Shown here: positions 1 to 58,701 of the stretch, one piece after another
Numbering within the stretch: the first letter of the stretch is position 1
Layout of the letters: each line of letters opens with the position of its first letter
NCBI GenBank assembly: GCA_000165345.1
Contig: CM000433.1
Coordinates: forward strand, 1-64,000
Direction: 5' to 3'
Length of the DNA: 64,000 bases
Program-made: the position numbers and the translations under genes
Notes under the pieces: generated by a model
What the model saw: the letters and a program-made list of their open reading frames with translations, nothing else
What the model was told of the DNA's origin: nothing
Databases searched by the model: none

Positions 1-3000
1 AATTAAGCCGTACTCCGCAATACTTTTGTTACAATCAAAATTCGCAATGAGTAGAACGTCTAACAACGATTTTGTTTACATGCTATTCTAACATAAATGA
101 GGTGTGGTTCGTTTGAAAAAAAAATACTTGATTCAAGCTACAATAAACTTAATTTTTGATATCGAATCTTTTGATTTTGCATTGAAATTTTAAATATATG
201 CTCAAAATCAATTTTTTTTATTCTACCAAAATGTGAACTAATGTAAACATAATGTAGGTATTATTGTAGATTATATTTAAATATAAGAGATCATTATAAA
301 TTATTTGAATTTTGATTCTCTTACTTCAATATACCAAGACTAGGATAAAACTGAAGAAAATATCAATTTTTTTGATTTAATTACATTTTTTCCCAGCATA
401 ATTTTGGGCCTAGAATACGCTTTATTTTCAATAAAAAGCTTTACCAAATTGTTTAATAAATTAAATTATCTTTATCATTACCATTATATTTATCTCGATG
501 CAGAATAAATAATCTAATTAATCATTATAGCTAGTTAATTATTACATATCTAAAGCAATTTATTGCATTCAAAAGATGAAATTACACTTTCATTAAAAAT
601 TAGTGAAAAAAATAATCCATACCGATATATTTTTATATTTATTAATACTCTATTCCAAATATTAAACTAGTGGTATTTTTATTGAAAAAAAATTTATTTT
701 TTTTTTCTAGCCATTGGACCTACAACTCTATAATTTAAAATTATATTTATCTAAAAAATGTTTGGTAAAAATTATTAAATAAAATCAAGCTAAAAAATAT
801 GGAAACCATCAGCTTTCATGCATAAAATTAATAATTAATAAAATTTTTGAAAATTCAATTTTAAAAATAATACTAATCATCTTGCTTTTAAATTGTGTAA
901 ACCAAAAATAAATAATAAAAAATGAGAGTTTAATTATAAAAGTAAATAAGGAATAATTTACGTTTTTAGTATTTACAGTTTTAATATAAAATATACCCAC
1001 ATTAAATAATTACGTGTTAACATTTTTTATAATTAAAAAAAAATTAACACCTAAATCTAAATAGTGTAAAATCTACTAAGATCATCTAGTAACATATCAA
1101 GTGATTAAATATGGTATATTTAGTCTTCAATATTCTGGAAAAACTTGATTTTGTTTCTTTTTTTTTTAATATCTTCAAATATTTGAGCAAATACTAATTG
1201 AATGGACTCAAACCTCGTGAAAAAGAAAAAATTAATCATGAAATTAAGTCAAAAAGAAAACTTACAAAAAAAAATTCCACCCTCGTACTTCCTTGGTGGA
1301 TATATTTTAAACACTGAATCTCCTCATTGATAATTTGTATAAGTTATTTTGTATGCCCTCAATCAAACATGAATCTATTCTCCATTAAAAATAAAATATT
1401 TTCAACAACTGAAAATATAATTTTTAACCATTCCTTTCAGACTATGTTCCCACTTGTGCTAGCTCAAATAATTAGAAACTTACCGAGTTTCAAATGGAGA
1501 ATAAACTCTAAAATTTGTTTTTACCTTCACTTTAATGCCTTGAAAATTAGTTAGGAGTGAACTGTAACAAAATATTGATTAATTCCCATTTTTAAATTGT
1601 ATTTTTGAAGAAAAAAATAATTAAACTAAAAAAAATCTAGATATTCATTAGTAAAATATTTTCAGGTTTATAATTTTTTAAGCAAACAGTAATATAGGGA
1701 GAAATAAAATAGCACAGATATCTAAAAATTAAATGTTAATGTTCGAATTTATTACTTTTTAACCAAAACTTACCCTAACTAAATTGTTACATTAAATTAA
1801 GTTCGAATGAGACAATTTTTTCCATTGAAGTTATCATTCGATCGTAGTTTACCACACTTTTTTATTGTTATAATTCGGGAAAATCTAAACAGAATTTATT
1901 TGTTTCTTACCTGAATTCTCGATACAAAATATTATCTATAAGTTGTTTTTGACCAAAGAAAAGTATTCACAATAAAATTTTGAAATTTCGGAAGTTTATT
2001 TTCTTGAAAAATGTACAAAAAAAATATATTTTTATTTTTTGATTCGTTTACATATTAACTTTTGCTTCAATTCGGTTTAAAGTTTTCAGGTTTAAATAAC
2101 CCAATATTATAGTGATAAGTGTTAAAAAATGATGCTTTATACACTGCAGGGCGTTTTTGACTTTAATTTAACTGTTAACAATTAAAATTAATTTATTTGA
2201 CAAATTAGTGAAACCTGAAGTCATTCAGCTTAAATAATTTTTATCTGTTTGTATTACTTACCTTAACAAATTTTATAGTTTTATTTCTTTGAAAACAAAA
2301 TTTGTGCATTTTTTATTTTTTGATTAAATGATTCAGTTGCCTAGAAGAAATTTGTTAATTTGTCCATTTTAGACAAAATTAGGAAAAAGCAAGTAAGAAT
2401 ATATTGAAAGGAATGTAGTAAGAATCGAAGGAAATGACTGGATGAATAAATTTCTGTAATCGAAGGGAAAAATCCTGAATTAACTTTTTGTTAATTTGAA
2501 ATCAATGAATTTCGTTTCAATATTCACCTACTATATATTGAGGTGAATTGGGAAGAAAGATTAGTTAAATATAAAGGGAAGTAAATTTCAATAAATGAGA
2601 AGTTTCATTTATAACCATTTTTCACTTCTCTAAAGAATATTAGTATTAATATTGATTGATAAAAAGAAAACTTTCGGAAATCCCTAAATAGAGGGAATAA
2701 AGAGGAGAGTTTTTTTAGATTCTAATTAATTTTCCTTTCTCAATACTAAATACTTTTAGATCATTAAGTATAATAAATCCCAATTTCTTTTTCATGAATT
2801 ATTAGAGCCTTATGTACAATTGAAATGATTGGCCAATTTTCTAATTTATTACTAATTGAATAATTAAGAAGTTTAATCAATTGAAATTTTTTTCGTTACT
2901 ATTAAAATGTTACGACATAATTTTTAGTGATGATAGTTGTGATAGTAGCAACAGTTAGTTGCATAAAGATAGTGTTATCATCAATAATAATAATAATAAT

Positions 3001-4443
3001 ATTAATATTATTATTACTATTGCCATTTATTATTAGCGGAATGTAAAGAATCCTAATTAGAATTTATTTCAAATATAAAGCGACAGCAAAAATAAGTAAA
3101 GGCATGCTACTTGTATTATAAGTAAAGCATTCACCAATATTCAAGTTAATTCTAATTTTGAAGATTCTTTCTGTAATAATTTTGTATTCAATCACTAAAC
3201 CAAAAAAAAAAAATTTACCAGTTTTCAAATTCATTGTTTGTATTTCTATACCATTAAGTTTTGCCAATAAAATTACCAGGAAAAGTTTTCTTATACGAAA
3301 AAAAATAGGTGGAAAATTGTGATATCTTAAAATTACAAGAAATTCCCCATTTACTTCAATAAAATTCCTATCAGCCAATAATGATTTTGATATATCTCAT
3401 CATAGCTTTAACGCCTAGTAGATTACATTAATTATTTCTATCCATACATGATTTTAAGTTTTACTAGATAAAAAAGCAATATTATAATATTCAGCTTACT
3501 TAACACTTATATCGATCATTGGACTTTTATGTTTGCAATTTAATGTGTTGTATAGCAATGAACTGATTGCTAAAAATTAGTTCATTTATTACGAATATTA
3601 TTTTATGCTCTCTTCCTCCTAAACTAACTTAAATAATCAGAGATTCTATTCATAACCATTTCATTTCAATTGTACTATTAATTTAGGCCAATATTCACGA
3701 TTCATATCAGTATTAAGATAAAGAAAGTGCCATTAATTAGAATCCCAACCAAGATAATATTTAGTTCCAATAAAATAAAGATAAATAATACATTTTCAAA
3801 TTTAATTATAGTGTCGCCAAATCAGATTACATTTTTACTTTTCTTCTTTAAAGCAGCAAATAAATAAATCCAAATAATAATTATGAGAATCAGAAAAAAG
3901 TATTCTGAGGCTAAAACATATTCTAAAATGTATTCTAAGTGTGTTATATAATTTTCAAATTTAAAGACTTTGTCTCTAAGTCTAACTAAAAAGTTAGAGT
4001 TTATTACTCAATTACGAGATTGCGCAATATTCGTGATTTTTCTTAAATAATTATAAAGGGGAGAATTTTGCAAAATAAGAATTAAATGATCACTCGATTC
4101 ATATTTTCTTCCAACCTGTAAAATTTAACAATTATTTGCCAATTTTGATATTTATTTTTTGTTGCTAATTGTCCAACTATGATAAATCTAAGAATTAAAT
4201 ATTTCAATAATCAAAAATCCATAGAATACTCAAGACATACTAATCTACCATAAATAATACACTAATCTTAGATAAAATATTCTTGGCTAAATCTCCAACG
4301 GAATATTTACCTGTAATGGTAATATCTAACAAGTCGTAGAAAATCTTGCTTCAGATGCCACTAGATGAGTATTACTACATAGTGCAAATTTGACAAATCT
4401 CGACTAGTCAAATTCACAGTAATTCAAAATTTGATTTTATAAA

Positions 4444-6174
4444 TTATTGGCTTTCATTTTTTTTGAATTGCAAGTAAAGATATGTTTCGCATTCGTAAGC
4501 TTTGTTAGCAGTATTAACGAGATCCTTGCCATATGAGTGCTTTCTGAAAAGATGAATTCTTTCACAAAGTGATGAGGTAAAACATTCCAAGCATGAAACA
4601 TCTCCATTAGAGCAGAGATCTTTACAGGTAGAGACTCTATCGGAACAACTTTGGAGATACGAGTTTTCTGTAAATCTCATCATAATATTGAATATCATTT
4701 TCTCCATTAAATTGACTAGATCATCAGTAGTACATTCTCTAGGATTGGGGAGGTAATTACTAGTAGGAGCGCATACAATTTGTTTTGGAATATAATCTCT
4801 CTTCTGGCAAACCAACATCGCGGCGCTCAAGTCTGAAATGTATCCCAATCTGGTACTAATGACTTCTTGGTGCGAGGCTAAAGCATCCTTAAGTTGTAGG
4901 ATTTCTTCTGTTTCAGGTTGATTGGTCTCACTTTCTTTATTTATTAACTTTGTGAGAAGCAATGACTTTGCGTATAAGGCATCATTTTTACCTTGCAAAT
5001 TGACTAATAAAGAACCAGCCCCTCTGACTAATTCTTTGGAGCACTTTCTATCAACATCAAGCCCATTAACTACTGAAACAACTTCATTCTTATATTGCTC
5101 GTCCAATTTAATAGTTCTATCCAACTCTAAAAGGAGCTCCTTTGTATCTCTAGTAACTCTGACATTGTAAACTGCCAATTCAGAAGACAACTTTGAAATT
5201 TGCTCCATTTCACTAGCAATCAAAGAATCCAAATTATCATCAAGACCTATAACTGAAGAAGAGTAACCATGAGTAAAACTATCTGGATGGCTGAATCTCA
5301 TTTGTGATGCCTTAGTTAAGACATCTAATTGCATTGTGGCCAAGTGAGTCCCTGCTTTAGGCTTGCAAGTGTCATCTACCAGAGCTGATTCCTCTAAGGG
5401 TGACTTCTCAGCAAAAGTACCATATCCCTTCTTTGCTTTACCTAATTTCTTTTCCTCAGCCTGTTTCAACTTCCTCAATTTCTTTTCTTCCTCCTTTTGC
5501 TGTTTTTCTCTCAACTTCTCCTCCTTTTCCCTCTGTTTTCTTGCTTCCTTTTCAGCCTTAGTTTCCTTTTGTTTCTTTTCCTTCTTTGGTTTTTTCTCTT
5601 TCTTAGCCTTTTTATCCTCTACAACAACAGTTCCTTGCTCAGCAACAGCAACTTCTTGCTCAGCAGCAGCAACTTCTTCCTCATCAGTAGCACCCTCCTG
5701 AGTCTTCACCTTCTTCTCTTTCTTGGCCTTTTTCTCTTTCTTGGCCTTTTTCTCTTTCTTGGCTTTCTTATCTTTGTCCTTCTTGCCCTCGGCCTCCTCT
5801 ACAGGTCCTTCCTGAGCTCCTTCCTGAGCTCCTTCCTGAGCTCCTTCCTGAGCTCCTTCCTGAGCTCCTTCCTTAACTCCCTCCTGAGCTCCTTCCTCCC
5901 CGGCCTTTGATTCCTTCACCTTTTTACCCTTCTTGGCTTTCTTCTCCTTCTTCTCCTTCTTTTGTTTCTTTTGTTTCTTATTCTTCTTGCCCTTCTCAGC
6001 TTTCTTATCTGGCTCACCTGAATCTACTGTTGAATCACTAGTAGATGAAACATGTGGCTCAATAGAAGGGTCAACAGAAGTTTGCAGTAAGGAAAAATGT
6101 TGAGTTGTTGAATGATAATTAGATACTTGAAGTATCACAAATACAAATGCTAAGATTGAAAAAAAGAGTTTCAT
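4444..6174 (-). CDS. Secreted Lys/Glu-rich low-complexity protein (576 aa). It has an N-terminal signal peptide, KKAKKEKK and EGAQ micro-repeats, and a C-terminal Cys-rich globular region.
   Basis: Full-length ORF starting MKLFFSILAFVFVILQVSN (hydrophobic signal-like N-terminus). It has a long charged repeat core and a C-terminal ~150 aa with about 12 Cys. No recognisable conserved family. Confidence 0.55.
   Translation of the reverse strand: MKLFFSILAFVFVILQVSNYHSTTQHFSLLQTSVDPSIEPHVSSTSDSTVDSGEPDKKAEKGKKNKKQKKQKKEKKEKKAKKGKKVKESKAGEEGAQEGVKEGAQEGAQEGAQEGAQEGAQEGPVEEAEGKKDKDKKAKKEKKAKKEKKAKKEKKVKTQEGATDEEEVAAAEQEVAVAEQGTVVVEDKKAKKEKKPKKEKKQKETKAEKEARKQREKEEKLREKQQKEEEKKLRKLKQAEEKKLGKAKKGYGTFAEKSPLEESALVDDTCKPKAGTHLATMQLDVLTKASQMRFSHPDSFTHGYSSSVIGLDDNLDSLIASEMEQISKLSSELAVYNVRVTRDTKELLLELDRTIKLDEQYKNEVVSVVNGLDVDRKCSKELVRGAGSLLVNLQGKNDALYAKSLLLTKLINKESETNQPETEEILQLKDALASHQEVISTRLGYISDLSAAMLVCQKRDYIPKQIVCAPTSNYLPNPRECTTDDLVNLMEKMIFNIMMRFTENSYLQSCSDRVSTCKDLCSNGDVSCLECFTSSLCERIHLFRKHSYGKDLVNTANKAYECETYLYLQFKKNESQ
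5716..5890 (-). repeat. Intragenic short tandem repeats: an 18-nt unit (KKAKKE) x3-4 and a 12-nt unit (tccttcctgagc = EGAQ) x~7.
   Basis: Directly visible: ttggcctttttctctttc repeated at 5716-5770, and tccttcctgagc repeated at 5806-5890. Confidence 0.85.
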
Positions 6175-6770
6175 TCTTGTATTGACTTAGCAAGATAAAA
6201 TAAAAAAAGTGGTGAGAAAAAATATAAAAAATAAAGTAAAAATGACGAATTATGTAGATACTATGTTAGTCAGTATCTAAGTATTTAAATATTTAAGTTA
6301 TTAAGATTACTCTCCACATAAATTCAAATAAAATATATTCGAGGCTAGACATAAACGGTACTGGTAGTACCGCTACATAATTTTACTTAATGTAGATGCT
6401 AGCCCGCGATAAAGTTTGATTCTATTTTTGGTAATTTACACAGAATTTGGTTTATAGTAAGTCTATTTGGTACATTTCTCTAAAAGAAAATTATAACTTT
6501 GCGCGAATTGATCTTACCACGGTATTCTTTAAAACAAGAAAAAAATTTAAATTTACAACTTAAATTAATGCTTTGATGCTTTCCTCATCTAGTATTAAAT
6601 TAACTGAAGCATTGATTTATTTTCAGTTCTAAACTTTAATAACACGTGAATATCAGATCTACCTTATTCAACTAAGAAAATTTATTAATTTACGAATTTA
6701 TTTGTATTAAAACATTAAAATCTTTTTCTTCATTTTTCTTTATTCTTTAATTATTAGTTAATCATTAGAT

Positions 6771-9071
6771 TTACAACCTTGTTATTTCATCCTTTTCATT
6801 TTCTCCATCTTCATTTCCGTCCCCGTCTTCATCTTCATCTTCTCCAGGTTCTTTTTCTACTTGAGCCACTGTTGTGCCACTGCTGGTTGCACTGCTACTA
6901 GTTGCACTACTGCTGATTGCACTGCTACTGGTTGCACTACTGCTGGTTGCACCACTAGTAGTACCAACAGAAAGTAATCCAGAATTCTTCATTTCATCAA
7001 TCTTAGCTCTTAGTTCTGCCTGAGAAACAAACCCTAATTCATTACATCTCTGAATTTGTTCAGATAAACCTTCCCTTTTCATAATTAGAGCCCTTATTTC
7101 TGGAATATTGCTACACCTTTTCATTCTACAGCCATCAAGTCTGCAATTCTCACAGCCATTATGTTGGCTTGACTTATTATCAATTTCAATATTACAATTC
7201 CTGAGTTCTTGGTTCAATAAAATAATCATAAGGTATGTACAAATACCACCTTCGAAGAGCATAATAGCTAGTCTTTTTTCCTCATCAGTAGATTCAGGTG
7301 GTGGTATTGATGGAATTTTATATTCACTTCCTGAAATACCATACTTTTCTTTTCTTTTCTTATGCTTTTTGAATGCTTCACTCAGTTGAGTATGGTCTTT
7401 TTCATATTTAATCTTTTGTTGGCTTGATGCCTTCAGCTTAACACCACTCAAAATTGCATTTTTAATATCATCAGGTAACTTTTGATATGTTTTAGTTTTT
7501 TCAGCAACATCAGCTTTAAAATGAGAGTGACCCATAATAGAATGAGCCAGGAAACGTGAAAGAATCGAATTAATTTTTTCTTCCAAAATCCTTCCTACTT
7601 CTGATTCAGTTGGGGCATCCATAATATTATATGTTTCTTTGCTTGTGAGAGCCAAAAAACTTTCGCAAGAAAGAATTTTACTAAAGATTCTTCGAGCTTC
7701 TTTAATTAATTGATTTCGTTCTAAGATGAGTGTACTTTGTAAATTCTGAGCAGCAAGGCAACTACTGCATGAGGATAGATCTTCAAGTCCTGGGCATTGT
7801 GAACAGTAAGCCATTGATGTACAACTCAAGCATTCCTGTCTAGTACAACTATTACAAATATTTTTTTGCTTAACAACATTGTTAATAATGGAAACTTTTA
7901 GAGCTATTTGATATACTTTGGCTTCAAGTTTACCCTTGAGTATTTGGTATTGCTCCTTTGTACATTTATATGGTATATGACTCTTGTATAATATAAAGGC
8001 AGAAAGATTTTCCATTTGGAGAGAATTTTTGACTAGGCAATTTTTAATTATTTTTTCCAAGATACTAAACATATCATCTATAGTATTTGAAATAGTTTTA
8101 CATTTTTCTTTTCTTCCAAAAGCTTCTTTACATGTCTTACAGCTCTTTGAGCTAATTATTCTGCACCTATTTCTGCAAAACCCTGTTTCATTTGTAATTT
8201 TAATCGATGCCATTTGACAGAAACTTTTCGCCATATAAATTTGATTTGAAAGAATGAAAACAGATTCAAGTAAAGTTTCTTTACATTTAGAATCTTTCAT
8301 TTGCCTATTATGTTCTTTTTTAATAGTCCTATAGACCTCTTTGTTATTTTGTAATATTTCTTTTGCTTTATTTATTTGAGAATCACTAGAAACAACCTGT
8401 GACTCCAGATATAATTGCATAATACCAAGATCAAATGGCAAATTGTCACTTTCAGAGATTTTCTCTAAATTTGGATTTGGAGGTTTTTGAACAGCTTCTT
8501 CTTCTTCATCATCCTCGTCATCAGTATCATCTTCTTTTTTAAGACCTGCAGAAGAGCTATGCTTTTTATTTCTCAATTCTTCCTCTGAGCTAGCAATATT
8601 TTCCTGAGTTTTTCCGTGTTTTCCACCTTTATTTTTTCTTTTAAACATACCAAATAATTGACTTTTAAGTCCTTTTTTAGCACCTATGCTTGAGATTTCC
8701 GGAGAAGATTTACTTTTAAAAAGATTTCCTGAAAAACCAAATAATTTCTTCTTTTTATGTTTAGGTTTAAACTCAACTGATAATACAGAAGAAGAATCTG
8801 TTTGGTCTGAGGAATCTGATATTGATAAAGAGTCTTTACTGTCACTTCCTAATGAAACAGTATCATATGAGCTGAGTGAACCTGAATCCGAACTATCGTA
8901 ATTTGCAGTTGCTTTTAATAGAGAGACTAGGGTGATACTTTGAAAGTTCTTCGATAAGGATAATTTGGAAGATAATAATTTTTCATCTATATTTTCACAT
9001 AGTATTGTAAAAAAAATAACAACAAGATATAACCATAAATTGTGACCAATCATCTTGAATATGAAATTCAA
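6771..9071 (-). CDS. Secreted Ser-rich / Cys-rich protein (766 aa). It has a signal peptide, a central module with CxxC-K motifs, and an (ATSSS)n mucin-like tract plus acidic tail near the C-terminus.
   Basis: ORF starts MNFIFKMIGHNLWLYLVVIFFTILC (signal-like). Its Cys pattern includes CKTCKE and CNSCTRQECLSCTSMAYCSQCPG. The C-terminal SSSATSSSAISSSATSSSATSSG is encoded by a 15-nt repeat at about 6876-6960. Confidence 0.55.
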   Translation of the reverse strand: MNFIFKMIGHNLWLYLVVIFFTILCENIDEKLLSSKLSLSKNFQSITLVSLLKATANYDSSDSGSLSSYDTVSLGSDSKDSLSISDSSDQTDSSSVLSVEFKPKHKKKKLFGFSGNLFKSKSSPEISSIGAKKGLKSQLFGMFKRKNKGGKHGKTQENIASSEEELRNKKHSSSAGLKKEDDTDDEDDEEEEAVQKPPNPNLEKISESDNLPFDLGIMQLYLESQVVSSDSQINKAKEILQNNKEVYRTIKKEHNRQMKDSKCKETLLESVFILSNQIYMAKSFCQMASIKITNETGFCRNRCRIISSKSCKTCKEAFGRKEKCKTISNTIDDMFSILEKIIKNCLVKNSLQMENLSAFILYKSHIPYKCTKEQYQILKGKLEAKVYQIALKVSIINNVVKQKNICNSCTRQECLSCTSMAYCSQCPGLEDLSSCSSCLAAQNLQSTLILERNQLIKEARRIFSKILSCESFLALTSKETYNIMDAPTESEVGRILEEKINSILSRFLAHSIMGHSHFKADVAEKTKTYQKLPDDIKNAILSGVKLKASSQQKIKYEKDHTQLSEAFKKHKKRKEKYGISGSEYKIPSIPPPESTDEEKRLAIMLFEGGICTYLMIILLNQELRNCNIEIDNKSSQHNGCENCRLDGCRMKRCSNIPEIRALIMKREGLSEQIQRCNELGFVSQAELRAKIDEMKNSGLLSVGTTSGATSSSATSSSAISSSATSSSATSSGTTVAQVEKEPGEDEDEDGDGNEDGENEKDEITRL

Positions 9072-9253
9072 GTTTATTGCACTTTTATTCCCCTTTATTT
9101 ATTAGTAACTTTTTTTTCAGATTTAATTATTTCTATATTAAAATAATTATAAGGTGTAGAAACGGAAACTCTACACCTTACATCATTTAATAATTGTGCT
9201 ACCAGGAAAGATTCATGTGTTTCTAATTTTACACACATTACAAGTAACCTATA

Positions 9254-9296
<43 letters not shown>

Positions 9297-10173
9297 CAAG
9301 GAAAAAGAAATGAAAAAGTTAAAAAGCTGAATAGAGGTTAAGTTTATGTTGTAATAACAATATTGCGAGTTTGTTCCTTTCTTAATTCAAATTATCATTT
9401 TAAATCAGATTTAATTTTCACACAATGTGGCGCGCATCAAATTACAAAAAATAGTTCGGGCGCAGTGGCTGAAATTGACTTGAAAGTGCATTTTAAAAAA
9501 ATATTAACAAATAATTTCAATTCGGCACAGCTCTTTAGAGTGGAAGCTTTTAATAGAGCTTATATTTGTTAATACTTTGACTTTTTAATTATATCAGCAG
9601 AAATCATACATTATTTGATCTTCGGGACAATTCATTTAATCAGTCCACAATATTATTATTATTAACCATCTTTCACTAGGTAAAAAAAAATAATGCACTA
9701 GAAGTAAACATGATAAAACTAATATTTTAATCCTAAAAAAAATTAAATTTGAAACCATTAAATAAAGGTAGGGATTGAATTAGTCAAAACTCTTAAGCTT
9801 GCTGGAGATAATATTAACAAAGTAAATTAACAAACATAACTAAATTCAGAGAATTAATATGAAAACATTGAAGAAAAGGTAATAATATCACAGGCTATTG
9901 TCTTTTTCTTATTTAATCATCAAGTTGTCGAATAGCTTTAATGCTTAATATTAAATCGGTATATGTTTCTTGGATTAAAGTATCACAATTTTAGAATATC
10001 TGATTTTTCTTTATTTTTAATATTTTCACCCTATTAAACTCGGAATAAACATAATAATTTAGCGGAATGAGCAGATTTGACCCAAAAGATCAAATTTTTC
10101 TAAATCAATAGCGACTTTCGGGATACTTTTTTAAGTATATTGCAAGTTAACAGATTTTATTATTATAGACGGG

Positions 10174-10698
10174 TTAAATTAATCGGTCATCTGAGGAGCT
10201 TAGAATTGGAGTAAATTGTAGGCCATTACTGCCGTTTGGGTCATTGCCCTCGGTGTTTGAGTTAGTTCCAAATCTCCTATTTTCTGGTGAATTTGTTCTA
10301 CTCAATCTTCTTTCATTTGCAGTATATTTCAAAAGACTGGTCTTGCGTCTCTTAGATTTGGAAACATTTTGTTTTCTTCTCGAGACAGAAGTTCTAGCTC
10401 TTAGCTTGCCTAGATTACTTGTTTGACTATTTATTGAATCATTTGAACTATTCACTTTTGAATTCAATGATGTTCGTTGTGCGCCAAGTTGAAATTTGCT
10501 TTCAAATCTCGATTTGACTTTCTCTCCTTCAGTAGTGTGTACCATATCAGTGGTAGGAGATTTTGGAGGGCTAGGCATTCCTTTATTCTTTTTTGAACTT
10601 GATGTAGAATTTTTATTGCTTCTATTTTTCCTCCTTTTAGAGCTTCCTTTCCGGTGAGTTTTAGATTTTAAATTAGAAATACGACTAGTTATTTTTTT
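10174..10698 (-). CDS. Possible frameshifted C-terminal continuation of the 10685-16339 gene (Ser/Lys/Arg-rich, 134+ aa). Alternatively a non-coding ORF.
   Basis: The reading frame is open from 10698 down to 10174. It is offset by one base from the upstream giant ORF. The two frames overlap exactly at an A9 homopolymer (plus-strand T9 at 10692-10700). The composition (SKSKRRKTSLLKY..ANERRLSRTNSPENRRFG) resembles the KSKRKPLT..LLKKH..NRNL repeat units of the giant protein. Confidence 0.3.
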   Translation of the reverse strand, partial: KKITSRISNLKSKTHRKGSSKRRKNRSNKNSTSSSKKNKGMPSPPKSPTTDMVHTTEGEKVKSRFESKFQLGAQRTSLNSKVNSSNDSINSQTSNLGKLRARTSVSRRKQNVSKSKRRKTSLLKYTANERRLSRTNSPENRRFGTNSNTEGNDPNGSNGLQFTPILSSSDDRLI

Positions 10699-13600
10699 TT
10701 ATTTTGGATTCTTTTTTATCTTTTTCTTCTAGTTTATTTAAAAAATAGTTTGAAAGTTTTGTTTCTTCATAATTCACATTCATTGAACTTTCAATATGCG
10801 AAGATAAGTTACTGTCTCCCATATTTGAAGTATTAGTTCTTTCAGGTAGTAAAGATCTGGCTTTCTTTTTTGTCAAATTCATGTTTGAACTAACTAAAGA
10901 TTCACTAGAAAAACTTTTTTTGGGCTCGCCATTTGAATAAGAACCGGATGAAGGTAGAGGATGAGGAAGAGGTCTTTGGCCAAATGGGCCAATGCTAGTC
11001 ATATTTTCTTCATCTTCTTCCTCTTCTTCCTTTTCATCATCTAGATCTGATGAATTTCTTCTATTCAAGTTCTTGTTAGCTCTAGCTTTGCGTTTCTTTA
11101 GTAAATATTCCAATCCTCTCCTAGTTAGAGGCTTTTTTTTACTTTTTGGTTTTGGTAATCGAAAAGAACCTCGGTGTTTTGTTTTAGCAACTGCTGACTC
11201 TAGATTCAAGTCTTCACCCTTTGGTATCGGAGCATGAGATGGAGCTCCGCTAGAAGGGGAAGTGTAAGAATGAGGAGTTGGCGTTGGTGATGGAGAAGGG
11301 CGAGGAGGTAGTGGCGGCGGCAAAGGAGAAGGAGTAGAAGAGGGGGAGACAGAAGGCGATGGAGTTCTATGCCCATTTCTTAAATCTTCATCTTCTAGAT
11401 ATGATGAATTTCTTCTTTCAGAGTTTCTGTTATACCCAGTTCTGTGCTTCTTTAGTAATTCGTGCAAACCTTTCTTAGTTAAAGGCTTATTTTTGCTACG
11501 TGGTTTCACCACTTTAGAATATAATTCTTCTACTGTACTCATTGTTGGTTCTGAAGTCAAGTTTTCATCCTCTTGTGTAGGAACATGGGGTGTAGCTTCA
11601 TCAGAAACGACGGCATAAAAAGGAGAAGGAGGAGGAGAAGGAGGAGGAGAAGGAGGAGGAGGAGGAGGAGGAGGAGGAGGAGGAGGAGGAGGAGGAGGAG
11701 GAGGAGGAGCAGATGAACCGGATGAAGGTGGAGGATGAGGAGGAGTTCTTTTTCCATTTCCAAAACCTCCAGCTCGAGACGAAGAGTTTCTTCTAGTTGT
11801 ATTTTGATTAGTTCCTGTTTTGTGTTTCTCTATTAAATCTCTCAAGCCTCTCCTAGTTAAAGGTTTTCTCTTACTTTTTGGTTCTTTTTGAGAAGAATCT
11901 TGGTGGTTTGTTTTACCAACTGCTGAGTTCAGATTCAAATTTTCATCCTTTTGAGTCGAAATATGAGATGGAATTCTGTTAGATAGAGGGGTATAAGGAG
12001 GAGGAGACGGCGGAGGAGATGGTGGCGAAGAAGGAGGTGGAGGTGGAGGCGGTGGTGGAGGAGAATGAGGAGGCGGCGGTGGAGCAGATGAACCGGATGA
12101 AGGTGGAGGATGAGGAGGAGAAGGAGGTCTTTGGCCAAATGGGCCAATGTTAGTTATAATTTCTTCATCTTCTTCCTCTTCATCATCTAGATCTGATGAA
12201 TTTCTTCTATTCGAGTTCTTGTTAGCCCCAGTTCTGTGTTTTTTTAGTAATTTATCTAAAGCTCTCTTAGTTAAAGGCCTTCTACTACTTTTTGGTCCTA
12301 ATTGAGAAGAGCCCCATTGGCTTGTTTTATCAACTGTTGGGCCCGAATTCCAGTTTTCATTTTCTCTTGTCGGAATATGGGATGGAATTCCGTTAGAGGG
12401 GGAAACATAAGAAGGAGGAGATGGCTTAGGATAAGTCGGTGGTTGAGGGGCAGGAAATGAAGGTGGGGAAGGAATATTAAGGGATGGAGTTCTTTTCTCA
12501 TCTAAACTTTTATCTCGAGACAAAGGATTTCTTCCATTCAGACTTCTGTTAGCTCCAGTTCTGTGTTTTTTTAGTAATTTATCTAAAGCTCTCTTAGTTA
12601 AAGGCCTTCTACTACTTTTTGGTCCTAATTGAGAAGAGCCCCATTGGCTTGTTTTATCAACTGTTGGGCCCGGATTCCAGTTTTCATTTTCTCTTGTCGG
12701 AATATGGGATGGAATTCCGTTAGAAGGGGAAGTATAAGAAGGAGGAGGAGGAGGAGGAGGAGGAGGAGGAGGAGGAGGAGGAGGAGGCGGTGGCGGTGGT
12801 GGAGTAAATGAACCGGATGAAGGTGGAGGATGAGGAGGAGAAGGAGGTCTTTGGCCAAATGGGCCAATGTTAGTTATAATTTCTTCATCTTCTTCCTCTT
12901 CATCATCTAGATCTGATGAATTTCTTCTATTCGAGTTCTTGTTAGCCCCAGTTCTGTGTTTCTTTATTAAATCTTCCAATTCTTTTTTGGTTAAAGGTTT
13001 TCTCTTACTTTTTGGTTCTTTTCGAGGAAAACCTTGGTGGTTTGTTTTACCCATTGTTGGATCTGAAGTCAAATTTTTATCCTTTGGAATCGGAGTATGA
13101 GATGGAGTCCCGCTAGGAATGGAGGGAGGAGGAGGGGCAGGAAATGAAGGCGGAGGAGGAATATTAGGCGATGGAGTTCTTTTTTCATCTCCTAAACTTT
13201 TATCTCGAGACAAAGGATTTCCTCCAGTCAAATTTCTGTTAACTCTAGTTTTGTGTTTCTTTAATAAATCTTCCAAATCTCTCCTAGTTAAAGGCTTTCT
13301 CTTACTTTTTGGTTCTTTTTGAGAAGAATCTTGGTGGTTTGTTTTACCAACTGCTGAGTTCAGATTCAAATTTTCATCCTTTGGAATCGGAGTATGAGAT
13401 GGAGTCCCGCTAGGAATGGAGGGAGGAGGAGGGGCAGGAAACGAAGGCGGAGGAGGAATATTAGGCGATGGAGTTCTTTTTTCATCTCCTAAACTTTTAT
13501 CTCGAGACAAAGGATTTCCTCCAGTCAAATTTCTGTTAGCCCCAGTTCTGTGTTTCTTTAGTAAATCTTCCAATTCTTTTTTGGTTAAAGGTTTTCTCTT

Positions 13601-45033: not shown

Positions 45034-46454
45034 TAGCATTTGATTAGAGATTAAATAAATTATTTATACACTAGTTAATGAATGAAAAAGGGTTTCTATC
45101 AATGAAGTTTTTTTTAGCATTTAAATTAGAATTGTCGTAATTTTTATGTTCATATTCGGTAATATTATTTGGTTGAAATGTTTTGTATGGATTTTTAGAG
45201 TTATTGGTTTGGGATTTAGGAAGTGAGTCTTGGATTGATGATAAATTTAAATAGTAAAGATTATATAGAGATTGATTAATCCAAATACGATTAATGTATT
45301 TGTTTCTAATAAATTCTTTGAGGATTAAATGATTATTAGAATTTGGTGGAGGTCCTAGAGAATTAAAATCTCTATTTCCAAGAAATGTTAAGAAATCTTT
45401 CTATATAAGTTGAAGTTTAGTGAGTTAATAATTAATAGTTAATTTAAGAAGTACGTAAGCTTACTTTGTTTCCAAGACTACATATAAGTCTTATTTCATC
45501 AAATTTCCATTTAGATAGGGATATTCCTTTAACTTTATGATTAAACTCCCGGCTAAATAAGAAGTTAGTAGCAATTAAGAGCAAAATTTAAAGAATATAG
45601 AAAAAAATGACTTACTGAATACCAGAGCATACTGAGCATACAAATGTTCCAAAATTAATACATACATAATTGGGTCCAATTTCATTACAATTAGCACATT
45701 TTCTATTTTCTATACAACTTTTCTGAAAAGATCTCAATCTTTCAATTAATTCAGTTTCATCAAAGATAAGACTCATAGAAAGAGTGACATTGAATTATTG
45801 GGTATTATTTGTGAAATGGATGATTCTTTAGTAAATAATATTCTAATTTGAGTTATAATTTTAAAAAAATCAAAAATTCTTAGGATGTAGAGTTTATTTC
45901 ATGTATAGGTTGAAGAGATAGATCATAGATTTCCATGAAATTCGACAATTTATATAATAATTTGTAGTCTTAATTTTTTTTTAACTTTTTTTTAAAATTC
46001 CCTTTTATTTTTAAATGAATTATATTTAACTTACATGCGATCAATATAAATAATTACATGCTTAATGGCAAGCGGCAAAGTTTACCGCCAGAACATGAAG
46101 AAGTTAGTGAATTGAATAAAGTAAGGTTAAAGAATAAACAAGAGAAATTGAGGAAGAAAAAAAGAAAATTATTGGTAGCAAATATATTAAATAAGGCAAT
46201 TGTTATTTCAGCAGGATTGATGTATTGTAAGGAGTTGATTGTGATATTATTATAACTATTTACTCAAGTTGATTAAATTTAAAAGTACAAGAAAAAAAAT
46301 TAATTAAATTTAAAAAGTGCAGAATTGGAGGTGTTACTTAAAGTGAGTATAGTAGATTAGATTAATTGAGTTGAGTTTTAAACCGAAGAAATTCTTTAAT
46401 TTTTGGATGTTTTACTATTAATATAGTTTCTGGTATATTATAGGTGGACGTAAT

Positions 46455-58331: not shown

Positions 58332-58701
58332 TAAACTATACTTTTCAAAGTATCTTTGTTGTAATATAATTAATAATAATAATAATAATAGTAATTACCT
58401 AGTGCAAATATATTGTTGCTTACCTATAGTCATTTTTATATTCTTTGTTAAAAAGTATATTTGGTATTTCATAACTTTCTTTATCAAATAAATTTTGATT
58501 CTTTTCTTTTTTAAAATTCATTTTAATTTCACATACTTTTATATTAATTGATTTACTTTAGTTTTAATTTTTTTTTTTCATTTTCATAGATGGGCGGTGG
58601 GGTGGTAACGAATATGATTTTTTTTCCTAGTTTTTTTTTAAATAAAAAAAAAGAGGTATCGGATACCCTTAATTTTTTTTTTTAATAAATTAAAAAAAAT
58701 A

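Follow-up and report, generated by a model that had tools for sequence, protein, structure and literature searches.

A giant proline-rich repeat gene at the start of Cryptosporidium parvum chromosome 5, probably split in the 2004 reference sequence by one extra base in a homopolymer

The locus and its gene models

The window, that is, the whole stretch of 64,000 nucleotides that was analysed, is the start of chromosome 5 in the 2004 capillary-sequenced reference of Cryptosporidium parvum Iowa II. Two adjoining open reading frames (ORFs) on its minus strand are the subject of this paper, a giant one of 1884 aa and a small one of 134 aa downstream of it, and they are listed in Table 1 together with the other features of the locus. 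The product of the small ORF (10177-10578, minus strand) is identical to EAK88202.1/XP_625968.1, a protein of C. parvum Iowa II. We infer that the whole gene corresponds to cgd5_40 plus cgd5_30; these numbers were not taken from the annotation but counted from cgd5_70 (PEPC) and cgd5_20 (ROP7), with Tables S4 and S5 of Isaza et al. 2015 (PMC4637869) as a further basis. In those tables CHUDEA5_30 and CHUDEA5_40, under which the C. hominis UdeA01 orthologue is entered, are both paired with cgd5_40, and they were the only place where cgd5_40 was found; a literature search for the accessions and for cgd5_30 and cgd5_40 gave nothing in main texts. No record in the protein cluster collection matched the 1884-aa, 2053-aa or 1949-aa product exactly, and the contig collection had no encoding contig on record for the 1884-aa and 134-aa products. 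A fused query of 276 aa across the junction returned no homologue, though its 134-aa part is itself a cluster representative, so that the word index evidently fails on sequence of such low complexity.

Table 1. Features of the split gene in window coordinates
Feature	Position	Strand	Remark
Entire gene, intronless	10174..16339	-	2054 aa after removal of one A
Truncated 1884-aa ORF ending KESKIKKNN*	10685..16339	-	Covers codons 1-1882 of the real gene; probably cgd5_40
Gene model of 134 aa in the 2004 annotation, spurious	10174..10578	-	EAK88202.1 / XP_625968.1 / Q5CS68, 'hypothetical protein'; probably cgd5_30
+1 frame, stop-free (174 sense codons plus stop), the true C-terminal tail	10174..10698	-	...KKITSRISNLKSK...SSSDDRLI*
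A9 homopolymer (T9 on the plus strand)	10692..10700	-	One base more than in every other assembly; the frame breaks here
TAG stop, reached only through the extra A	10685..10687	-	Becomes ACT AGT (Thr-Ser) once the frame is corrected
Proline-rich repeat region, eight units, each a poly-Pro tract with the basic motif KSKRKPLTKKELEDLLKKHRTG after it	10940..13777	-	Motifs at 11087-13591
In-frame 3-bp length difference (CCT, one Pro) against IOWA-ATCC	11651..11653	-	Within a (CCT)n tract
Hydrophobic N-terminus MKIIIIIIILIALIFTQTNLH, probable signal peptide	16277..16339	-	Judged by eye

The coding strand reads ...GAATCCAAAAT AAAAAAAAA TAAC TAG... at the junction, where the run of nine A occupies window positions 10700-10692. 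Both this run and the end of the giant ORF, as given in a preliminary description of the locus, were confirmed on the sequence, and so was the claim that the downstream frame stays open up to 10698: it ends at the stop 10174-10176 of the minus strand and overlaps the last codons of the giant ORF within the homopolymer. Deletion of one A in silico reproduced exactly the translation that had been proposed for the fused frames (...KIKKITSRISNLKSKTHRKG...), and the protein, which had been put at about 2055 aa, was computed to be of 2054 aa, that is, the 2053-aa protein of the IOWA-ATCC assembly plus one Pro.

The protein of approximately 2054 aa is fast-evolving, proline-rich and repetitive, with a probable signal peptide; the orthologue in C. 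tyzzeri is annotated as 'putative Secreted Protein'. By our own calculation dN/dS is 1.09 for the tail and 0.78 and 2.6 for the remainder of the gene, and 0.856 is given for the gene in Table S5 of Isaza et al. 2015 (PMC4637869). These ratios are uninformative on the coding constraint of the tail, as constraint is no stronger elsewhere in the gene. The impression that the stretch KSKRRKTSLLKY/ANERRLSRTN in the tail is reminiscent of the repeat unit did not hold: with an HMM built from the eight units, 1051 of 2000 shuffled tails score at least as high as the tail itself, and the likeness is compositional only. An identity of the repeat unit with WH2 or FH1-like actin regulators was considered and found no support, the motif PLTKKELEDLLKKHRTG being without a WH2 match in Pfam at E values up to 10, and the repeat-unit profile gave only chance matches (E above 1) when WH2-containing solved chains were sought among the PDB sequences. 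BLASTP of the giant N-terminus against the neighbouring secreted proteins (cgd5_10, cgd5_20/ROP7 and cgd5_50) gave no significant match, and the AlphaFold2 model of the N-terminal 450 aa from a single sequence was unusable (pLDDT 45).

The locus in other assemblies and species

All four other C. parvum assemblies, namely IOWA-ATCC, IOWA-BGF, GCA_031892065.1 and GCA_048859185.1, have A8 at the site, and each of them carries a single annotated gene, of 2053, 2042, 2037 or 2035 aa, which always ends in DDRLI*. These genes are single-exon, because the annotated spans equal 3 x (aa+1). That a contraction by one base joins the two ORFs into the real protein is shown by every other available assembly. 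IOWA-ATCC (GCA_015245375.1, CP044418.1:31294-37455, 2053 aa) and IOWA-BGF (GCA_035232765.1, 2037 aa) share with the window the locus, the strain lineage, the start and the final stop (...SSSDDRLI*), but they have A8 instead of A9 and therefore one ORF. The DNA of the gene in IOWA-ATCC is identical to that of the window except at two sites, A8 and one CCT (Pro) fewer; over 10758-34207 there are 0 substitutions between the two assemblies, and over 36455-59180 there is one 1-bp difference. Poly-Pro and repeat length vary among the other C. parvum assemblies, with proteins of 2035-2053 aa. EAK88202.1/XP_625968.1/UniProt Q5CS68 is not the product of an independent gene; it makes up the C-terminal 134 residues of the 2054-aa protein, in which its Met lies internally.

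As for the quality of the sequences compared, IOWA-ATCC was polished with Illumina reads by iCORN2 and Pilon (PMC8744675) and CpBGF with Illumina reads by NextPolish (PMC12179316). Illumina contigs from Logan with the neighbouring 760-aa gene all end at a homopolymer of 38 nt (9257-9294), and from the other side the contigs end in the repeats; a look-up of two small ORFs between the genes, 9636-9758 and 9363-9572, for Logan contigs spanning the tract gave no match.

The comparison with orthologous loci that had been proposed in the preliminary description shows a continuous frame in three C. hominis-type assemblies and in C. tyzzeri, none of which stops at KIKKNN. The C. hominis-type assemblies have A7T at the site (AAAAAAAT), of the same length as A8, and their orthologues of 1949, 1922 and 1942 aa read through the junction (...KLKKLTSRISNLK...SSSDDRLI*). 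In C. tyzzeri the C-terminus of TRY51701.1 (1749 aa) spans the whole tail, and its junction reads KLKKLTS as in C. hominis. The amino acid identity of the tail is 78.5% with C. hominis and 83% with C. tyzzeri, the frame is kept in both, and the sole indel between C. parvum and C. hominis in the tail is of 66 nt, a multiple of 3. Moreover, C. hominis has ATA (Ile) in place of the ATG taken as the 'start' of the 134-aa ORF. The orthologues of C. hominis UdeA01 (GCA_002223825.1, 1949 aa) and C. tyzzeri have the same N-terminal domain, poly-Pro plus KSKRKPLTKKELEDLLKKH units and a tail ending in SSSDD(R/K)LI, but they differ from the window in having fewer repeats, a tail insertion of 22 aa and, in C. 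hominis, an A run broken to A7T.

Origin of the additional base

The best explanation, which we consider probable, is that one intronless gene was split by an A8 to A9 change private to a single assembly, most likely an error of base calling or consensus. An A8 run lying 172 codons ahead of the true stop is recorded as A9 in the 2004 assembly alone; the extra base shifts the frame so that the ORF stops two codons on (...KIKKNN*), and the remaining 172 codons were annotated as a separate 'hypothetical protein' of 134 aa from the first in-frame ATG. The extra A itself would most likely have arisen by a base-calling or consensus error in a poorly covered end of the 2004 contig.

Assembly-private positions were counted in a 5-way alignment of window positions 95-11000, in which the window has 17 such positions, including the extra A, and IOWA-ATCC has 0. 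Clusters of window-private substitutions plus indels are dense at 95-111 and 1656-1693 and resemble low-quality sequence, and positions 1 to about 100 have no counterpart in telomere-to-telomere assemblies, which suggests that they are the contig end. At 58628 the window has another private indel of 1 bp, with which six other assemblies disagree, including three Illumina assemblies from Logan, and low-quality regions of the C. parvum reference have been described to result in split ORFs (Isaza et al. 2015, PMC4637869). Because the extra A is private to the window and lies in its discrepancy-rich first 11 kb, a homopolymer sequencing error is favoured among the three options (error, truncating or phase-variable tract, and chance) that had been put forward. 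There is, however, evidence that counts against an error. When homopolymers of at least 8 bases were compared with IOWA-ATCC, 60 of the 62 were concordant, only A9 and the 38-nt run 9257-9294 being different, and therefore the 2004 sequence has no general homopolymer error pattern. The list of frameshift genes of CpIOWA II against BGF Illumina reads includes no chromosome 5 gene (PMC12179316). In addition, IOWA lines keep evolving and diverge in passage (PMC8744675), and real frameshift variants distinguish them (PMC10927135).

The concordance of the long runs, by which an error is not the default expectation, and the frameshift variants of the IOWA lines also speak for a genuine A9, that is, a mutation or a sampled minority allele of the 2004 IOWA II oocysts by which the protein is truncated by 172 residues, the tract possibly slipping back and forth. 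A homopolymer is a plausible site of slippage, and the loss of the tail might be tolerated because the whole gene evolves fast at the dN/dS values given above. Such an allele is nevertheless unlikely: A8 is found in 4/4 other C. parvum assemblies, two of them descended from the same IOWA stock, C. hominis is without the long run, and the extra A is one among many window-private discrepancies near the contig end; the 134-aa product is also absent from the other assemblies in the collection despite dozens of C. parvum runs with the neighbouring genes, a weak negative. It is far less probable that A8 is a long-read under-call of the homopolymer, and that A9 is true and the gene really split or truncated in C. 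parvum. PacBio and ONT assemblies generally tend toward shortened homopolymers, and CpBGF has eight private deletions in T-runs in the same 11 kb, but IOWA-ATCC and CpBGF are Illumina-polished, the former with no private difference in these 11 kb, and four independent assemblies agree on A8. Furthermore, the in-frame state is common to C. hominis (three assemblies) and C. tyzzeri, with a different sequence (A7T) of the same length, and the downstream 172 codons are open in all three species.

These in-frame orthologues also effectively refute the idea that a correct and functional genomic A9 is bridged in the mRNA or in translation, whether through a short intron, programmed +1 ribosomal frameshifting or transcriptional slippage on the A run, and we give it hardly any credence. 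Runs of nine A can provoke polymerase slippage, and a candidate GTGAAT...AAG pair (from about 10776 to about 10590) might in principle allow in-phase splicing; yet a device for recoding or splicing should be conserved, all relatives have one continuous frame in a single exon, and both C. hominis and C. tyzzeri translate the candidate 'intron' in frame and conserve its protein sequence. Chance would mean that the open downstream frame is an accident and that the 134-aa ORF has no relation to the giant gene; it has nothing in its favour beyond the low-complexity composition. The tail stretch contains 0 stops in its own frame versus 11 and 24 in the other two, and composition-matched shuffles of the tail contain 12.6 stops on average and were stop-free in 0/20,000 cases (Poisson P about 4e-6). 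By these stop statistics, and because the orthologous proteins of three species end with this tail, chance is refuted and its likelihood is practically nil.

Phase variation and use of the reference

If the A9 allele were real in 2004 IOWA II, a slip of one base could toggle between a full-length secreted repeat protein and one truncated by 172 residues; this is unlikely, but if true, an apicomplexan secreted protein encoded next to the rhoptry protein ROP7 would have a length switch of a contingency-like kind. The likeness to bacterial simple-sequence contingency loci is that a homopolymer lies in the gene of a secreted, fast-evolving protein and that a change of one base decides whether the product is long or truncated. 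The differences are that here no length heterogeneity is seen among isolates beyond one assembly (A9 occurs in the 2004 reference only), that the tract is near the 3' end instead of early in the gene, and that the run is not conserved in sister species, the uninterrupted run not being kept in the related lineages, C. hominis-type or C. tyzzeri. A conserved phase-variable tract is unsupported, given that the other four C. parvum assemblies all have A8 and that C. hominis has an interrupted run (A7T). To our knowledge, no mechanism of homopolymer phase variation is known in Cryptosporidium.

The split of the gene is best read as an ordinary, known kind of defect of a reference sequence, already corrected in later assemblies, and its practical consequence is small. 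Users of the 2004 Iowa II set should treat EAK88202.1/Q5CS68 as the C-terminus of the adjoining giant gene and rely on the newer assemblies for the gene model of about 2050 aa, since the split model has consequences for ortholog tables, counts of singletons, databases used in proteomics and the design of knockouts or tagging at the gene's 3' end. Independently of the frameshift, the gene itself, which is predicted to encode a secreted protein with poly-proline repeats, is one of those that diverge most between C. parvum and C. hominis and lies beside ROP7, may deserve attention.

The A9 tract and the two reading frames

At the end of the giant ORF in the 2004 capillary-sequenced reference of C. 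parvum Iowa II, the minus strand reads ...GAA TCC AAA ATA AAA AAA AAT AAC TAG, with nine A at window positions 10700-10692 (the A9 tract), and deletion of one A gives a single ORF of 2054 aa. The preliminary description of the tract, the ORF ends and the frames is exact to the single-base level, and its expectation that a change from A9 to A8 would fuse the giant ORF with the 134-aa ORF into a protein of about 2055 aa is borne out by this 2054-aa ORF and by the other assemblies, in which one gene is found. The C-terminal region encoded in the downstream frame (the tail) contains no stop codon in that frame, whereas the two alternative frames have 11 and 24. Shuffling of the same 522 nt gave a mean of 12.6 stops and no stop-free sequence in 20,000 shuffles, so that a chance opening of the frame is rejected. 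The proposed resemblance of the tail to a degenerate repeat unit did not hold and is compositional, because an HMM of the repeat unit does not rank the tail above shuffled sequence.

Features of the split gene and its surroundings in the window
Feature	Position	Strand	Description
Two adjoining genes, numbered by counting back from cgd5_70	4444-9053		cgd5_10 ('Uncharacterized Secreted Protein') and cgd5_20 (ROP7, confirmed rhoptry protein)
134-aa ORF	10174-10578	-	inside the downstream open frame
Downstream open frame	10698 to stop at 10174-10176	-	one base ahead of the giant ORF; includes the 134-aa ORF
Giant ORF	10685-16339	-	1884 aa, C-terminus KESKIKKNN (stop)
Repeat units	11087-13591		eight; poly-proline tracts (up to 21 Pro) and conserved basic helix-like motif KSKRKPLTKKELEDLLKKHRTG

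All four other C. parvum assemblies carry A8 at the tract and one gene, namely the later IOWA assemblies IOWA-ATCC (GCA_015245375.1, 2053 aa) and IOWA-BGF (GCA_035232765.1, 2037 aa), GCA_031892065.1 (2042 aa) and GCA_048859185.1 (2035 aa). These genes have no intron, because the span is 3 x (aa + 1) in all four, and their proteins terminate in ...SSSDDRLI at the same stop as the 134-aa ORF; the window protein after removal of one A is the IOWA-ATCC protein plus one proline. The window and IOWA-ATCC differ by 0 substitutions over 10758-34207 and by one 1-bp difference over 36455-59180. In three C. hominis-type assemblies (GCA_002223825.1, GCA_001483515.1 and GCA_045269125.1) the tract is AAAAAAAT, equal in length to A8, and the junction reads ...KLEEKGEKRSKLKKLTSRISNLKFRTHRKG...SSSDDRLI (stop). 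Where the 134-aa ORF has its start ATG, C. hominis has ATA (Ile), and the sole indel between the parvum and hominis tails is one of 66 nt. An exhaustive HMMER scan matched the tail to only two representatives, the 134-aa Iowa II protein and a 1749-aa protein (TRY51701.1, 'putative Secreted Protein [Cryptosporidium tyzzeri]') having the whole tail at its C-terminus with 83% identity. Therefore, since the A8 assemblies and the C. hominis-type and C. tyzzeri orthologues read continuously, the two ORFs form a single gene in all the other genomes examined, from three species. An intron, programmed frameshifting and transcriptional slippage are rejected because each needs a conserved out-of-frame arrangement and the relatives are all in frame. 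Nor is there support for a phase-variable tract that is maintained, since the four remaining C. parvum assemblies share one tract length and C. hominis has an interrupted run.

Assembly error or variant of the Iowa II line

The extra A is probably an error in the 2004 assembly. In a five-way alignment over window 95-11000, private positions number 17 in the window, 0 in IOWA-ATCC, 8 in BGF (all single-base deletions, mostly in T-runs) and 3 and 7 in the two other isolates. Five window-private substitutions and indels are crowded into 95-111, and eight more lie within 40 nt of AT-rich intergenic sequence at 1656-1693, where none of the four other assemblies has them; the latter cluster is probably low-quality sequence. 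Three telomere-to-telomere C. parvum assemblies contain nothing that corresponds to window 1 to ~100, though they reach 5.6 kb further, and 1-111 looks as if the chromosome 5 contig of 2004 began raggedly or with low-quality sequence. Dense private clusters and an unmatched contig start are typical of low-quality sequence near contig ends. Past 11.7 kb, 46 kb of the window hold a single additional discrepancy: one base is deleted at 58628, where six other assemblies, including three Illumina (Logan) assemblies, have it. The A9 tract therefore lies within a discrepancy-rich terminal stretch of the contig. The window-private deletion at 58628 (CC-TAG versus CCATAG) precedes the start ATG of a 1085-aa ORF by ~74 nt. 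A shared long-read under-call at the tract is unlikely because the IOWA-ATCC (PMC8744675) and BGF (PMC12179316) assemblies were Illumina-polished, and split ORFs are known to arise from low-quality stretches of the C. parvum reference (Isaza et al. 2015, PMC4637869).

However, the 2004 sequence equals IOWA-ATCC at 60 of 62 homopolymers of at least 8 bases, IOWA lines evolve in passage (PMC8744675) and real frameshifts distinguish them (PMC10927135), all of which speaks against a simple error, although a real variant of the 2004 Iowa II line is still improbable. Also against a simple error, no chromosome 5 gene appears in the CpBGF paper's list of CpIOWA II genes that carry a frameshift when compared with BGF Illumina reads (PMC12179316), although the A9/A8 difference should qualify; possibly the gene model in use had been altered, or indels in homopolymers had been removed by filtering. 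Every Illumina (Logan) contig breaks at a 38-nt A run (9257-9294, T38 on the gene strand), which separates the giant gene from the 760-aa gene, and the length and flanks of this run vary across assemblies.

The gene and its surroundings

Low G+C, large ORFs without introns and the presence of PEP carboxylase, Rrp6 and Cef1/CDC5 genes indicate that the window belongs to a compact AT-rich eukaryote, and the exact products of the neighbouring genes were found on C. parvum assemblies. An ArfGAP gene of 192 aa, annotated in other assemblies over 706 nt (~45070-45780, minus strand) and therefore containing an intron, is without a long ORF in the window. The 134-aa ORF is identical to EAK88202.1 / XP_625968.1 / Q5CS68, 'hypothetical protein [Cryptosporidium parvum Iowa II]', which identifies the window as the 2004 Iowa II reference. 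PEP carboxylase is cgd5_70 (PMC12604037) and ROP7 is cgd5_20 (PMC12688253); by the gene count back from cgd5_70, the giant ORF would be cgd5_40, the 134-aa ORF cgd5_30, the 760-aa gene cgd5_20 and the 576-aa gene cgd5_10. Consistent with these numbers, Isaza et al. 2015 (PMC4637869) paired cgd5_40 with both CHUDEA5_30 and CHUDEA5_40 (identity 0.723, dN/dS 0.856 gene-wide), and their tables have no cgd5_30 row. Because its neighbours would be cgd5_10 and cgd5_20, the giant gene would belong to a secreted-protein gene cluster at the chromosome 5 end, and no paralogy or sequence similarity of its protein with these neighbours was detected.

The giant protein has a hydrophobic N-terminus, an N-terminal region that is largely helical in the AF2 model (poorly predicted, pLDDT 45), a Ser/Thr-rich stretch before the repeats and a Ser/Lys/Asn-rich tail after them. 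The repeats superficially resemble the FH1 + WH2 arrays of actin regulators, but only in layout: the protein has no Pfam family match, no WH2 or other known motif was detected in it, and an FH1/WH2-type repeat is unsupported by Pfam and by a PDB profile search. Poly-proline/repeat length (10940-13777, including 11651-11653) varies among the C. parvum assemblies (2035, 2037, 2042, 2053 and 2054 aa) and also among the C. hominis-type ones (1922-1949 aa), and the differences may be real polymorphism or repeat collapse. Between parvum and hominis, dN/dS is 0.78 for the N-terminus, rises to 2.6 immediately ahead of the junction and is 1.09 for the tail, and the gene is fast-evolving along its whole length. 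What lies beneath the correct and careful preliminary observation is an ordinary defect, specific to one assembly; the public assemblies IOWA-ATCC (2022) and CpBGF (2025) already have the corrected form, as do the orthologue annotations.
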